This document shows, one piece after another, positions 31,297 to 38,347 of a DNA stretch of 64,000 nt. The translations under genes were made by a program, and so were the position numbers. Every line of letters starts with the position of its first letter. Positions within the stretch are counted from its first letter, which is position 1. The notes under the pieces are model-generated. The model was not told the origin of the DNA and ran no database searches. It saw only the letters and a program-made list of their open reading frames with translations. Origin of the DNA: a phage; the sequence record PX969468.1; one strand, written 5' to 3'.

Positions 31297-32502
31297 ATGA
31301 TTTTCATCTACGAACATTTCAAAACTCGTAAAGAAGCACGCGACCGCCGTGCAGAACTTGAGAAGAAAGGTTTCACATGTGCCATTGAGAAAGGTGACAC
31401 AACCTGGACACTGGCAGTGGGTGCCCCAGAATTGTTCGATCCTGACCGTGACAGCGTCTGCTACACCCGTGAGGATTTTGAAACCCGTGAAGAGGCCCGT
31501 CTATTTCGATATGGGCTGGAAGATAACGGTAAGTACGCCATGATCTTAGACTTAGGCGAAGGTTCCGTTAAACGTTGGGGCGTGATATACCCACTGTGTG
31601 TTGTTCACGGTGTGGGGTTTACTGGGGTAGCAATCAAGTCAGAAGAACCTTTAGTAGAAGTCAAAGATCCGGTGCTGGAAGTGGTGAGCAGTGTGTCTCA
31701 GCAACAGACTCGAAGCATCGAGCCTTTGGTAGTTATTTGCGGGGAACTCCTCCAGATCACCTGCAACGAAGGAATTTTTGAAATTCGCCGCAGCGAAAGT
31801 GAGGAAGTTTACCAGAAAGTCTTCGACCATATCTCTGTTCAGGAATATGATGAGGCAATTGGTGAAATCCTTGTCTGGCTGGAACGCAAGAATGAGTTCA
31901 CCACACTTGCAGACAACCTGATCATGAAAGATGGTAAGCTCTACTACTACGGTGTAGAGATGCGATCCACCATTGCAAAGAAAATTGAGAAAGATTATGC
32001 AGACGGAACGCTGGATGACCGCTATGTGAAATTCCTCGTTCGCCTGCTACGCAATCCTTCTGCAAAATCTGTAAACATGCTCTACGATTTTATGCAGGCC
32101 AATGATATTCAGATTGCAGAAGATGGTCGAATCATTTGCTACAAAGGGGTTCAGTTTAACGGCAGCAAGTGGGTGGATTGTCACAGTGGTAAAGTTCCAC
32201 AATACCAGGGTGCTTTTGTATCCATGCCTCGTAACTTTGTAGAGGATGATCCGGAAGCTGCGTGCTCCTATGGCTTACACTGCGCCAGCAAAGAGTATGC
32301 AAAGAGCTACGGCACTGTAATGACTGTTATGGTTGATCCTGCAGATGTGGTTAGTGTGCCATACCAACACAATAGCGCTAAGTGCCGTGCATGCCGCTAT
32401 GAGATTGTGGTAGCTCCGGAAGCACGCAAAGATGGAGACCCTATTGAATATGTAGTTGATCGTGACGGTAACACTATCGACATTCTTTACGAGGAGGCGT
32501 AA
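31297..32502 (+). CDS. rIIB: rIIB-like protein
   Basis: C-terminal signature (MLYDFMQANDIQIAEDG..DCHSGKV..MPR..SYGLHCASKEY..DVVSVPY..AKCRACRYEIV) matching recalled T4 rIIB. Confidence 0.65.
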   Translation: MIFIYEHFKTRKEARDRRAELEKKGFTCAIEKGDTTWTLAVGAPELFDPDRDSVCYTREDFETREEARLFRYGLEDNGKYAMILDLGEGSVKRWGVIYPLCVVHGVGFTGVAIKSEEPLVEVKDPVLEVVSSVSQQQTRSIEPLVVICGELLQITCNEGIFEIRRSESEEVYQKVFDHISVQEYDEAIGEILVWLERKNEFTTLADNLIMKDGKLYYYGVEMRSTIAKKIEKDYADGTLDDRYVKFLVRLLRNPSAKSVNMLYDFMQANDIQIAEDGRIICYKGVQFNGSKWVDCHSGKVPQYQGAFVSMPRNFVEDDPEAACSYGLHCASKEYAKSYGTVMTVMVDPADVVSVPYQHNSAKCRACRYEIVVAPEARKDGDPIEYVVDRDGNTIDILYEEA

Positions 32503-33872
32503 TGGAAAAAGGGCAGTATGATGTAGGCACAGATGCTGCCCTCGTTGCAATCATGAGCGGTGAGAATGTCTTCGTTTCAGGACCCGCAGGTTGTGGGAAG
32601 ACGTACCTCATCAACATGATCCAGTCAATGTATGGAGACTCTTGCATAACGGTTGCCCCGACAGGGGTAGCCGCTTTAAACGTTAATGGAGCAACAGCAC
32701 ACCGAACCTTCGATCTTGCAGCAGGTGTGAGCATGGAGTCAGACTGGACCGCAATAAGGGAAAAAACAGCAAAGCCTTTGAAAAGCAAGGCATTTACCAT
32801 CCTAATTATCGATGAAATCTCTATGATCCGTGCTGATAAGTTTATAGAGATGGATAGGAAACTCCGCTTCCTTCGAAAAAATGACAAACCTTTCGGGGGC
32901 ATACAGGTCATATTGTTTGGCGATTTTTACCAGGCACCTCCTGTTGTCTCTTCTATGGAGAAGGAAGCCTACTTCAACTTCTACCATACGGACCTATGTT
33001 GCTATACCGAATCTTGGAAAGAGCTTGACCTCCACAACATAGCCCTAATAGATCAGTTCCGACAGGAGTCTATTCGATTCGCCACAATGCTCAACTGTGT
33101 TCGTGAGGGTCGTCGCATAAAAGAGGTTGTAGCAGAGCTTAATGCTCGCTGTTACAAAGGTGGTGTACCAACAGACGCTCTCACAATTTGCGCCACCAAC
33201 AAACAAGCAGAGGAAGTGAACAGAAGGTTCTATGATGCCATCAACGCCCCAGAGAAGGTATACACTGGTGAAATGAAGGGTAAGTTTCCCTCCACCTTGC
33301 CAGTTGAGCAGGAGATGAAGTTGAAAATTGGCATGAAAGTTATGATAACCGCCAACGATGTTGACCCGACGCACAAAGTACCTTATTATGTTAACGGAAC
33401 ACGTGCCACGATTGTTAAATTTAAGAACAAGGCAGTGGTGGTAGAGCTTGAAGATGGAACACAGGTTGACATAGAGCAGAGGTTGTGGGAGAATAACGAG
33501 TATAAGCCATCTCAAAGATACAACATTGCAGAAAGGAAGATGGAGAAGTTTATAGAGAGGGTAGTGATTGGATCATACAAGCAACTTCCTCTGAAATCTG
33601 GGTATGCCGTAACATCTCATAAAAGTCAAGGACTTACGCTAGATTGTTACAACCTGGACCTTGGAAAGAACGGAGCTTTCTCTCCTGGGATGACGTATGT
33701 TGCTTTGAGTCGAGTTAAGACAATACAAGGAATAAACTTGTTGCGTCCACTAAGAGAAGTTGACATTATTGTTGACCCGCGAGTCGTAGAGTTTTACAAT
33801 ACAACATTCCCTGACTTAGACAAAATTGTCAGGAAAGATTTTGAAACCAGAGCAGAAGAGGGGGACGTATGA
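32502..33872 (+). CDS. SF1 helicase, Dda/Pif1-like
   Basis: Walker A VSGPAGCGKTY, Walker B ILIIDEISMI, YAVTSHKSQGLTLD motif. Confidence 0.75.
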   Translation: MEKGQYDVGTDAALVAIMSGENVFVSGPAGCGKTYLINMIQSMYGDSCITVAPTGVAALNVNGATAHRTFDLAAGVSMESDWTAIREKTAKPLKSKAFTILIIDEISMIRADKFIEMDRKLRFLRKNDKPFGGIQVILFGDFYQAPPVVSSMEKEAYFNFYHTDLCCYTESWKELDLHNIALIDQFRQESIRFATMLNCVREGRRIKEVVAELNARCYKGGVPTDALTICATNKQAEEVNRRFYDAINAPEKVYTGEMKGKFPSTLPVEQEMKLKIGMKVMITANDVDPTHKVPYYVNGTRATIVKFKNKAVVVELEDGTQVDIEQRLWENNEYKPSQRYNIAERKMEKFIERVVIGSYKQLPLKSGYAVTSHKSQGLTLDCYNLDLGKNGAFSPGMTYVALSRVKTIQGINLLRPLREVDIIVDPRVVEFYNTTFPDLDKIVRKDFETRAEEGDV

Positions 33873-34210: not shown

Positions 34211-34270
34211 TAAGATGTTAGTCTAAAGGGGAGGCACTCCTCCCCACAAAAACTAAGGAAGCACTAAACG

Positions 34271-34980: not shown

Positions 34981-35463
34981 ATGTCAGATTTTATGTGGAA
35001 AGTAGGTTATGCCTCTCCTGAAATGTGCGAGGCTTGCTTTGTAAAAATAGGCCGCGAGGATATTGACAAAGTGATCTTTAAGTTTCGTGATGTATCTGTG
35101 ATCGGCAACCGAGTGCTTAAGCACTTAAAGAATCTGAAGCTCACCAAAAAGAAGTTCTTCGGACTTTTCGAAGAGAAAGTTGATGCTTGGACCCATTGCA
35201 TTCAGGAAGCTAAATCTCACTACAGTGCTATCGTTACCCCAGAACGGGTAGCCAAGATGGAAGGATTCATCAACAGCACAGAGTTTGAGTGCCTAAAGGC
35301 TGCCCTTAATAGTTATCCAAAGTGCCTCAAACACCTTGACAAGTATGTAGAAAAGGATGGGGAAATGTATCTCACCCTGGATGCATACTATGAGATGCAA
35401 GAAATTTTAAATTTAGATTTGACATTGGTATCCACCGAGTATACAATAGGTATCCGGGTTTAA
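34981..35463 (+). CDS. Hypothetical protein (160 aa)
   Basis: ORF with RBS AGGAGAAGG. Confidence 0.45.
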   Translation: MSDFMWKVGYASPEMCEACFVKIGREDIDKVIFKFRDVSVIGNRVLKHLKNLKLTKKKFFGLFEEKVDAWTHCIQEAKSHYSAIVTPERVAKMEGFINSTEFECLKAALNSYPKCLKHLDKYVEKDGEMYLTLDAYYEMQEILNLDLTLVSTEYTIGIRV

Positions 35464-35468
35464 CACTA

Positions 35469-35497
35469 GGCCCTGCCCGAAAGGGTGGGGCTTTTTG
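35469..35497 (+). terminator. Intrinsic terminator (identical stem-loop to 46467-46495)
   Basis: GCCCTGCCC-GAAA-GGGTGGGGC followed by TTTTTG. Confidence 0.7.
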
Positions 35498-35514
35498 CAT
35501 TAGGAGACAGCAAA

Positions 35515-36279
35515 TTGAAATTTATCTATAAAGAACACTACCACAAAGGTGTTGTGTGGAGTCTATTTGACGGATCTGGCGGTGCAGTCATTGACTGGGC
35601 AAAAGCTGGATATCTGTGCCTGTGCTTTAACGCAGAAGGTGCTGACCACGGCAGTTATGCAGAGGTGATCACCGATCATCCAAATATTCACTATGTAGAT
35701 TATTGGATTGATCCATGGTTCCCTCAGGAAACTTTCTGCATGTACCCAGCTCCGGACTTTGTTCTTGCATTTCCTCCGTGCACGCATTTAGCGGTATCAG
35801 GTGCTGCACATTTTAAGAAAAAGCTGGCTAAGGATCCTTTGATCCAAATTAATGCTGTAAAGGATGCTCGGGTTGCGGAAGAGCTGGGAGAGATTTACGA
35901 TTGCCCGTGGCATGTAGAGAATCCTGTTGGTGTTATGTCCACACTGTGGCGCAAACCTGATTACCGTTTTCATCCTTCTGACTATGGCGGGTATTTACCG
36001 GAGGATGATGTAAACCCCTGGTTTCCTGAATTTATAGCTCCACGTGATGCCTATCCAAAAATAACTTGCGGCTGGATAGGTAATGGATTTATAATCCCGG
36101 CCACAAAACCTGTCCCGCAAATAGTTGACGCGGTTAGCGGGTATTCCATGCAACACGCCAAGCTGGGTGGAAAGAGTGCAAGAACGAAGATGATCCGAAG
36201 CCTCACACCACGTGGCTGGGCAAAAGCCGTATTCTTAGCAAACGAGCCTGTAGTAAGGAGCAGAATTAATGGGAAGTAA
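35515..36279 (+). CDS. DNA (cytosine-5)-methyltransferase-like protein
   Basis: Motif I LFDGSGGAV (FxGxGG), motif IV FPPCTHLAVSG (PC), motif VI HVENPVG (ENV); TTG start after GGAGA. Confidence 0.55.
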   Translation: MKFIYKEHYHKGVVWSLFDGSGGAVIDWAKAGYLCLCFNAEGADHGSYAEVITDHPNIHYVDYWIDPWFPQETFCMYPAPDFVLAFPPCTHLAVSGAAHFKKKLAKDPLIQINAVKDARVAEELGEIYDCPWHVENPVGVMSTLWRKPDYRFHPSDYGGYLPEDDVNPWFPEFIAPRDAYPKITCGWIGNGFIIPATKPVPQIVDAVSGYSMQHAKLGGKSARTKMIRSLTPRGWAKAVFLANEPVVRSRINGK

Positions 36280-38347
36280 ATTTATGGCATCTGCATACAA
36301 CCGTTTCGGTGAGCCAAACCCGAAAGCAACTAAGTATAAAAGTGGGGGAAGTGTGAAACGAGACTATCGTGATGAAAAAGAAGTTGAAACTGTAGAGACT
36401 GTTTTAGAAAATACTAAAATTGTCCCTGTCCCACAACAAAATATCGGTCTGATGGCTGCACAATATTTTGGTGTGCGATCAGCATTGTCCCAAGAAGACG
36501 GTGTGACAGTCACTGCAACATATTTCCCATATTACGACCGCTACGGAAATCTGTCCGGTTTCAAAAAGCGTGACTGGACGATTCCTAAAGAGCAAAGGGG
36601 CCATTTCTCCGTTGTTGGCATCGTAAAGGCCAACTCCCAGATGTTTGGTCAAAAGCTGTGTGCATCTTCCAACAACCGTAAGCAGATTAACGTTTGTGAG
36701 GGAGAAGGTGATGTTATTGCAGCATGGCAGGCTGCATATCAGATACAAGTAAAAGGGATTCTCACCAACGCTAAAGCCCCGGCAAAGGTGAAGCAGTGGG
36801 CTAAAGAGGTCCAGGACGGGATCGACGCAGTTATCAACGGTGGTGATCTGGCAGGAAAACCCTGCCTGCCTTTTGTTGGAATTAACTGTGGATGTGCAAA
36901 CGCAGTAGATACTTTTGCAAACAATGAGAAGTTTATCCGTAGCTATGGAACAGTTGTGCTGGCAATGGATAACGATGCAGCTAACGAGGTAGAGAAGCAA
37001 AAACACGTCATTAAAGGTGTTGAGGCCACGCACAATATCGCAGCATTTTTGATGGCTGATAACGTTTACCACGTAGAATACCCTGGTGAAGTAAATGACC
37101 CTGACGGTGTAAAAGATATCCGAGACATGCTGAAGGCTAAAAAGCTGGAAGATATTGTCAACATGTTCCGGCACCCTGTTAAATATGTGCCTGATGCTGT
37201 GTCGGATTTAGAAGACTTCTCTATCGAATCTTTGCGGAAAAAGACTTCCAACGGGGTAGATATCAGCGCAGAGTTCCCAAAACTGCAAAAAATGCTAAAA
37301 GGCTTGCACAAAGGGACACTTGTAATGCTTACAGGTCCATCAGGAGGCGGTAAAACAACTGTAGCTAAAAAACTGGAACACTGTATTGCAAGATACCTAA
37401 TGGACCCGACATGCCAGAAGGCTGATGACTACGAAGAGGATGATCGTCTATGTATGATCCATCTTGAGGAGGACCCAGAGGAAGCAATTAACTCCTTGTA
37501 TGCAAACCAGTTAGGGTTCGATGTTAAAGAGTTTGTTGAAGATCCTAGCCAGTTTTTAACTGATCAAGAACACGCAGAGATTCACCAATCATGGGCAAAA
37601 GCTGGAAAAATCAAAGTGTTCAAACATTTCGGGTCTATTCCGGTGGACGAGTTGATTACCAAGCTTAAGCAAATGGTTTGCCTGTACCATTGTCGTTATA
37701 TTGTACTGGATCACCTGTCCATGGTAATTTCAGGGCTTAATGTTAAGGATGAGCGAAAAGAACTGGACATAGCTATGACCCAACTGGCTGCGTTTTGTAA
37801 GCAGTTTAATGTGTTTATCTTGGTGATCGCTCACCTCAAACGTACAGAGATTGTGCCTCCTAAAGACAAGGATGGTAACCCGTTACCTTTCTGGTATCCT
37901 GTGCGAAAAGAGAATTTGCGAGGATCGGCTGGGCTTGAACAGTTGAGTTGGGTAGTTATAGGTGTCGAGGCCGAAGAAATGGTGGATCGTTCTCGTGGAC
38001 GTGTCCGTCTGGTAGGTCTTAAAAACCGTCCAGCAAAAACTTTAGGTATTGCTGACACTTTGGTTATGGACCCGCATACAGGTAAGTTCCATGATGCCAG
38101 TAATTGGTACTGGGACAAAGAAATGCAAATGTTTACAGATGGAGAAGGTGGGGAGGTTGTTTGGAGACCTCAGGCTATGTTTGAGGATCAGGAGCATGCA
38201 GTTGTAGAAACACCTATGGGCAAGGTTGTGGCTGATAAGGTTGTAACTCCTACTGTTAAGCCTGTTGACACGCAGGAAGACCTCCAGTACGATGATCCGT
38301 CCTCTGACCCTGTTCCTGGTTTTGAAGACGATGAAACACCTTTTTAA
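36269..38347 (+). CDS. Replicative primase-helicase (DnaB/gp4-like helicase domain)
   Basis: Walker A LTGPSGGGKTT, Walker B IVLDHLSMV, RecA-like fold motifs; N-terminal domain putative primase. Confidence 0.7.
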   Translation: MGSKFMASAYNRFGEPNPKATKYKSGGSVKRDYRDEKEVETVETVLENTKIVPVPQQNIGLMAAQYFGVRSALSQEDGVTVTATYFPYYDRYGNLSGFKKRDWTIPKEQRGHFSVVGIVKANSQMFGQKLCASSNNRKQINVCEGEGDVIAAWQAAYQIQVKGILTNAKAPAKVKQWAKEVQDGIDAVINGGDLAGKPCLPFVGINCGCANAVDTFANNEKFIRSYGTVVLAMDNDAANEVEKQKHVIKGVEATHNIAAFLMADNVYHVEYPGEVNDPDGVKDIRDMLKAKKLEDIVNMFRHPVKYVPDAVSDLEDFSIESLRKKTSNGVDISAEFPKLQKMLKGLHKGTLVMLTGPSGGGKTTVAKKLEHCIARYLMDPTCQKADDYEEDDRLCMIHLEEDPEEAINSLYANQLGFDVKEFVEDPSQFLTDQEHAEIHQSWAKAGKIKVFKHFGSIPVDELITKLKQMVCLYHCRYIVLDHLSMVISGLNVKDERKELDIAMTQLAAFCKQFNVFILVIAHLKRTEIVPPKDKDGNPLPFWYPVRKENLRGSAGLEQLSWVVIGVEAEEMVDRSRGRVRLVGLKNRPAKTLGIADTLVMDPHTGKFHDASNWYWDKEMQMFTDGEGGEVVWRPQAMFEDQEHAVVETPMGKVVADKVVTPTVKPVDTQEDLQYDDPSSDPVPGFEDDETPF

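Follow-up and report, generated by a model that had tools for sequence, protein, structure and literature searches.

The window analyzed here is the whole 64,000-nt stretch of phage record PX969468.1, to which all coordinates refer. Between an intrinsic terminator and a primase-helicase gene it carries a short open reading frame that was originally predicted to encode a C5-cytosine methyltransferase-like protein. This raises the question of whether so compact a protein methylates DNA and, if so, at which site and to what benefit for the phage.

The longest open frame at the locus extends from GTG 35485 to 36279 on the + strand (264 aa). As the original prediction pointed out, it begins inside the upstream terminator: GTG 35485 sits within the stem of the hairpin at 35468-35493, lacks a usable Shine-Dalgarno sequence and was rejected as the start. 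The TTG at 35515 following GGAGA, put forward as more plausible, is well supported by the sequence evidence, because a Shine-Dalgarno motif precedes it with a 7-nt spacer, it is the annotated start in both Murica (RefSeq) and MaxBurger (BASEL), the homologous codon in an 80% identical metagenome relative (L005) is a GTG preceded by AGGAGG, and the competing GTG lies inside the terminator. The GGAGA is annotated as RBS in Murica. A distant relative (L004) keeps the terminator hairpin, carries GGAGG where the window has GGAGA, and starts with an ATG slightly downstream. The hairpin folds with a dG of -21.8 kcal/mol (z = -3.8; 1 of 200 shuffles folds equally well) and the terminator, also annotated in Murica, ends the upstream transcription unit. 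A consensus scan additionally predicted a promoter that falls within the end of the upstream 160-aa ORF. From 35419-35498 onward the order is thus predicted promoter, terminator, RBS and gene, which is unusual and could be coincidental or reflect a leaky arrangement like an attenuator or a short transcript; from sequence, the link of this candidate promoter to the methyltransferase gene is uncertain.

Table 1 Coordinates of the methyltransferase gene, its flanking signals and the encoded motifs in the window
Feature	Position	Strand	Description
Sigma-70-like promoter, predicted	35419..35447	+	TTGACA-17 nt-TACAAT; consensus scan only, 11/12 matches
Intrinsic terminator	35468..35498	+	11-bp G+C-rich stem, GAAA loop, T5 run
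Shine-Dalgarno GGAGA	35503..35507	+	7-nt spacer to TTG 35515
CDS	35515..36279	+	TTG start, 254 aa; compact DNA (cytosine-5) methyltransferase, PHROG 757
Motif I, F18-D-G-S-G-G23	35566..35583	+	SAM-binding loop after strand beta1
Motif IV, P87-P88-C89	35773..35781	+	Catalytic Pro-Cys
Motif VI, E135-N136-P137	35917..35925	+	Canonical form is ENV; aligned to DNMT3A ENV by forced global hhalign
Family-specific insertion, residues 153-183	35971..36063	+	HPxxYGGYLPxDDxxPxFPxxIxxRDAYPK; between strands beta6 and beta7 in the model
DNMT3-like motif VIII, K182-I-T-C-G-W-I-G-N-G-F192	36058..36090	+	Family consensus KKTCLWTGNGF; DNMT3A RARYFWGNLPG
Variable region, residues 193-227	36091..36195	+	Position of the target-recognition domain; class-defining loop GYSMQHAKLGGKS
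Motif IX-like block, R228-S-L-T-P-R-G-W-A-K-A-V-F240	36196..36234	+	Opens the C-terminal helix
Primase-helicase gene	36269..38347	+	692 aa; context, not part of the enzyme

With residues counted from TTG 35515, motifs I, IV and VI occupy residues 18-23, 87-89 and 135-137 of the 254-aa protein, which bears out the predicted canonical order. A chance match was rejected by a shuffle test: the relaxed pattern [FY]xGxG..PC..EN[VPIL] at the observed spacing appeared in 33 of 200,000 protein shuffles and the strict three-motif pattern in none (0/200,000). Among the open frames of the window, the three-motif pattern is unique to this one. Conservation was assessed in 40 homologues and in 111 diverse cluster representatives. 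P87, P88, C89, E135, N136 and P137 are invariant in all 40 homologues, and in the diverse set they are kept at 91% (P87), 75% (P88), 93% (C89), 97% (E135), 91% (N136) and 98% (P137). In alignments FDGSGG falls opposite SLFDG (DNMT3B/3A) and LFSGAGG (M.HaeIII), and the Pro-Cys opposite the PC of DNMT3A/B, HhaI and E. coli Dcm. Motif IV had been called divergent, with PPC rather than PCQ. This description does not hold: the Pro-Cys is there, just as in the widespread GPPCQ form, and the only departure is a Thr instead of the Gln that comes next (PPCTHLAVSG). The stretch resembles PCNDLS of DNMT3, aligned in register, with Asn in DNMT3 and Thr in the window protein after the Pro-Cys.

The acidic residue of motif II normally binds the SAM ribose. 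In the wider family 89% of members have Asp there, and the window protein has Asn39 (35629-35631); this Asn is invariant among the enterobacterial-phage enzymes, a subgroup to which the active enzyme of phage K42, discussed below, belongs. Further downstream, the family-specific insertion has eight residues invariant in the 40 homologues (P154, L161, D165, P168, P171, D178, Y180 and K182) and three that are nearly so (G158, G159 and Y160, at least 90%); it is a candidate DNA-contact element. K182, T184 and W187 of the motif VIII region are likewise invariant in this set. In a forced global hhalign, K182-I-T184 (KKT in the family) stands opposite R790-A-R792 of DNMT3A, and the conserved R146 or R228 might substitute for the motif VIII arginines.

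The region in the position of the target-recognition domain spans about 35 residues and is flanked by highly conserved blocks. The loop that precedes GGKSxRTK falls into two classes among 120 close hits, GYSxQH in 80, including the window protein, and NPGW in 31, including the K42/KarlJaspers enzymes. Judged from sequence, the two classes may represent two target specificities. R228, S229, L230, P232 and R233 of the C-terminal block are invariant in the 40 homologues. The segment RSLTPRGWAKAV of the window protein resembles motif IX of E. coli Dcm, and the alignment of the C-terminal block RSLTPRGWAKAVF with Dcm motif IX RRLTPRECARLM is the best local BLASTP match between the two proteins, with an E-value of 1.2 that is not significant. 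An alternative assignment of the PRGW in this block as the GRSW motif X of DNMT3 was dropped because the match to Dcm motif IX is better. No GN[AS]V motif X is recognizable after the motif IX-like block, where the protein ends after one helix.

The window protein belongs to PHROG 757 'DNA methyltransferase' (full-length HMM match, E = 1.1e-86, 290.9 bits; residues 2-251 aligned to positions 5-226 of the 247-position profile). It is identical to MaxBurger bas54_0074, annotated as 'Dcm-like C5 cytosine methyltransferase', and differs by one residue from Murica gp074, annotated as 'DNA methyltransferase'. Scans against Pfam and NCBIfam yielded no methyltransferase hit, with PF00145 absent even at E ≤ 10. 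The original prediction had named the lack of any methyltransferase profile hit as evidence against itself; such a lack was found for Pfam and NCBIfam, libraries without this divergent family, but not for PHROG. Three homologues exceed the PF00145 gathering cut-off of 22 (P0070 with 28.5, P0072 with 25.4 and P0054 with 24.7 bits) and 28 of 40 touch the model at E < 1, always via the motif I-IV region. The family is therefore a divergent branch at the margin of what the model captures. Searches of PDB sequences gave a similar picture: phmmer returned just a motif I match to HaeIII (E = 1.2), and the family profile only weak matches (E 0.2-1) to DNMT3B and M.HaeIII with SLFDG and PC-x-DLS in register.

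The family is widespread in phages. Using tblastn we detected it in 1,502 phage records, including Drexlerviridae, Webervirus, Kagunavirus, Dhillonvirus and Felix-O1-like phages, and a collection of 5.8 billion proteins contained 3,530 members at E ≤ 1e-3. An exhaustive HMMER scan gave 1,007 clusters at 50% identity, and among the 150 best-scoring of these 1,007 cluster representatives the median length is about 232 aa. Members typically comprise 225-255 aa, apparently among the smallest C5-methyltransferase architectures. In two BFVD entries from uncultured phages, A0A6J5SE15 (1397 aa) and A0A6J5NPY6 (1126 aa), the compact methyltransferase fold is fused into 'Helicase/UvrB N-terminal' proteins, and in many siphophages the family adjoins helicase genes.

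A confident AlphaFold2 model built from 40 homologues (pLDDT 90.1, pTM 0.89) displays the class I SAM-methyltransferase fold with C5-methyltransferase topology, with strand E13-17 before the motif I loop and a helix at residues 233-253 at the C-terminus. The top Foldseek matches in the PDB are exclusively C5-methyltransferases, namely DNMT3A/B and the CP-933R prophage methyltransferase, and DNA methyltransferases outscore Dnmt2 in the fold search. For comparison by hhalign, the DNMT3A and HhaI sequences were entered by hand and that of E. coli Dcm was fetched. Local alignment of the family to these three covered motifs I-IV alone, whereas the forced global alignment to the DNMT3A catalytic domain brought motifs I, IV, VI (ENV/ENP) and VIII (RARYFWGN/KKTCLWTGN) into register. 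In its overall architecture the window protein comes nearest to the catalytic domain of DNMT3.

The window protein also differs from known enzymes. Identity to the catalytic domains of DNMT3A and DNMT3B is only 13-15%; the window protein has no regulatory domains, and the clear motif X of DNMT3 (GRSWSV) is not recognizable in it. M.HhaI and M.HaeIII are about 330 aa long, with a recognition domain of roughly 80 aa and motifs VIII (QxRxR) and X (GNxV); the 225-255-aa family has neither a clear QxRxR motif VIII nor a clear GNxV motif X. E. coli Dcm (M.EcoRII-type, PF00145, 472 aa) would share its predicted chemistry with the window protein, and it shares the label 'Dcm-like' in public annotation, with CCWGG as the assumed target of the window family. 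However, the window protein is about half its size and lacks a canonical target-recognition domain and motif X. Comparison of the two reached no better than E = 1.2 in BLASTP and E = 0.17 in hhalign, the latter at motif IV only, and by sequence the window protein and host Dcm are not orthologues.

The closest characterized relative is found in phages. The window protein shares full-length 53% identity (E = 4e-86) with the 236-aa Dcm of KarlJaspers (Bas06, bas06_0055; 711-bp gene), a phage 95% identical to K42 (Drexlerviridae), which was studied by Wang et al. (bioRxiv 10.1101/2023.08.16.553469; elsewhere cited as Cell Rep 2024;43:114857). In that work, each of the four phages that escaped retron Ec86/Eco1 carried a lesion within the 711-bp dcm or immediately upstream of it, and expression of Dcm was toxic to cells with the retron but not to cells lacking it. 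LC-MS revealed that 5mC in the msDNA was raised by wild-type Dcm but not by a C82A/E128A/K175A/K176A mutant. Of the Ec86-sensitive phages in the collection, 34 of 35 encode Dcm, and no Vequintavirus was reported among them. The CCWGG specificity of K42 Dcm was taken from the enzyme name and not measured (10.1101/2023.08.16.553469).

In the window protein, residues C82, E128, K175 and K176 of K42 Dcm correspond to C89, E135, K182 and I183. Three of them, namely the catalytic Cys, the Glu of ENP and the first motif VIII Lys, are thus the same in both proteins, while K176 is replaced by Ile183. The K42 5mC data together with these mapped active-site residues therefore tie the family experimentally to DNA 5mC formation. 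Both proteins are compact (236 and 254 aa), solitary and encoded in the phage replication region. They differ in a 12-residue N-terminal extension of the window protein and in the loop preceding GGKSxRTK, which is NPGW in K42 Dcm and GYSxQH here, and since the loop class differs the target site is not transferable. The phages also differ, the K42 type being a 51-kb siphovirus and the window lineage a 135-kb myovirus. The identification as C5-cytosine methyltransferase-like is thus supported by PHROG 757, the top fold matches, public annotation and a 53% identical homologue that makes 5mC.

The genes around the locus form a replication module, in the order Pif1-like helicase (32502-33872), four small ORFs, methyltransferase, primase-helicase and DNA polymerase (from 38406). 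The methyltransferase stop and the primase-helicase ATG (36269) overlap by 11 nt, which suggests from sequence that the two genes are co-transcribed and translationally coupled. The order methyltransferase/primase-helicase is also found in distant relatives.

The gene, its start codon, motifs and fold and the homology to a characterized enzyme are established here; the activity of this particular protein, its target site and its benefit to the phage are inferred. By analogy, it is very probably an active, solitary SAM-dependent DNA cytosine-5 methyltransferase of the compact phage family PHROG 757. The enzyme would have no partner restriction enzyme and would be expressed together with the replication genes. 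As in all C5-methyltransferases, Cys89 of the Pro-Cys would attack C6 of a flipped-out cytosine, Glu135 of the ENP would protonate N3, and SAM bound by FDGSGG would donate its methyl group to C5. DNA would be recognized through the very small region in the target-recognition position and the family-specific insertion 153-183, and the product would be site-specific 5-methylcytosine in phage and host DNA, with CCWGG favored as the candidate site purely through the analogy to K42 Dcm. The missing Pfam/NCBIfam hit, Asn39 in motif II, the Lys and Thr of motif VIII in place of the canonical Arg-x-Arg and the unrecognizable motif X speak against this reading. Still, the alternative of a catalytically dead or non-DNA enzyme, either a DNMT3L-like regulator or a Dnmt2-like tRNA m5C methyltransferase, is hardly credible given that the family as a whole conserves the catalytic Cys and Glu as well as the SAM loop, that K42 Dcm, 53% identical, acts on DNA, and that DNA methyltransferases score above Dnmt2. 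Transfer of a group other than methyl appears only marginally less remote. The phage protein CmoX (PDB 8yf3), a C5-methyltransferase homologue, transfers carboxymethyl from Cx-SAM; its defining features are an SPPC motif and an Arg (R350) at the position of HhaI N304 that binds the Cx-SAM carboxylate (PMC12783734), and a similar activity here would yield 5cxmC or a hypermodified base. The window protein instead has FPPC, with F86 before PPC in 87% of the diverse set and at least 90% of close homologues. R233 precedes the terminal helix, and the alignments showed no clear equivalence between it and motif X. Annotated neighbors within about 5 kb on each side are the helicase, small hypothetical proteins, primase-helicase and DNA polymerase, with neither CmoA (Cx-SAM synthase) nor CmoY (amide ligase) among them. 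In addition, the K42 homologue yielded 5mC in a cmoA+, Cx-SAM-producing host, and Vequintavirinae are highly restriction-sensitive, unlike hypermodified phages. The short length of the protein, read in the original prediction as leaving room for a different nucleotide-modifying activity, instead reflects a minimal DNMT3-like DNA-recognition region, in line with FPPC rather than SPPC and with the 5mC made by the K42 homologue.

Within the preferred reading of a cytosine-5 methyltransferase, the same 5mC chemistry may act on something other than the CCWGG of a 'Dcm', either at a different or relaxed site or with a preference for replication-fork, single-stranded or hairpin DNA; we consider this possible but rather doubtful. 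The GYSxQH loop as opposed to the NPGW of K42 Dcm and the likeness to E. coli Dcm being limited to short motifs argue in this direction. The K42 site itself was assumed, and in the dcm+ host MG1655 the msDNA was poorly methylated without the phage enzyme and methylated with it (10.1101/2023.08.16.553469). The overlap with the primase-helicase start, the helicase fusions in BFVD and the helicase neighbors in siphophages would fit a replication-linked target, and the minimal recognition region together with the link to helicase genes would fit a relaxed or fork target. On the other hand, Ec86 no longer defended against K42 once either C of the msDNA stem-loop CCTGG had been mutated (10.1101/2023.08.16.553469), and the variable loop is flanked by conserved blocks. 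A frequent purine-mC target is further disfavored by restriction: phages with the gene were isolated on McrBC+ MG1655 and McrBC targets RmC, which argues against frequent purine-mC methylation. The more specific proposal of a minimal replisome-coupled C5-methyltransferase, in which the GYSxQH loop would dictate a different or relaxed target, possibly single-stranded or hairpin DNA at the fork, is a tentative one that we regard as unlikely. If true, it would explain why the gene is kept in about 1,500 phage genomes despite no visible restriction protection and exposure to Eco1. Word frequencies in the window carry no information on the target for CCWGG and other palindromes; CCWGG, with 132 sites and a Markov ratio of 0.84, is not avoided and thus uninformative.

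A phage methyltransferase would ordinarily be expected to mask specific restriction sites. Restriction protection by a cytosine-5 methyltransferase in the window is plausible; the likely consequence is masking of particular sites, and the likely liability is that methylation of its msDNA activates retron Eco1/Ec86. In BASEL, Vequintavirinae are described as 'exceptionally susceptible' to the restriction systems tested, so any protection would be at best narrow, and for Drexlerviridae methyltransferase genes and restriction resistance showed no simple link. We found neither a methylome of any Vequintavirus nor a report of Eco1 restricting Vequintavirinae in the literature. The gene is a small phage DNA cytosine-5 methyltransferase already annotated in public rV5-like genomes (GenBank/RefSeq) and a family member has been characterized, so the assignment is correct but ordinary and already known, and for this window the finding matters little. 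The family is of some general interest, as it is missed by Pfam/NCBIfam, carried by about 1,500 phage records and includes one member that triggers retron Eco1/Ec86.

A 1-kb stretch around the gene shares 99.9% identity with Escherichia phage Murica, with PDX and with further rV5-like myoviruses (Vequintavirus). It is matched by 117 phage records, 116 of which cover at least 80% of it. Because the gene is core in the genus (116/117 records) and syntenic in relatives of 80% identity, we conclude that it is under selection. The junction at 34211-34270, just 60 nt between the 113-aa and 100-aa ORFs of the window, is the site at which Murica and MaxBurger have a 1,326-nt N6-adenine methyltransferase gene. 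Contiguous matches across this junction occur in only 29 of 117 Vequintavirus records. The adenine methyltransferase is therefore an accessory indel, unlike the cytosine methyltransferase, which belongs to the core. Sixteen unannotated 'Campylobacter phage' records (MG065635, MG065659 and 14 more) are 98-99.9% identical to E. coli rV5-like phages at the locus, and their host label looks doubtful.
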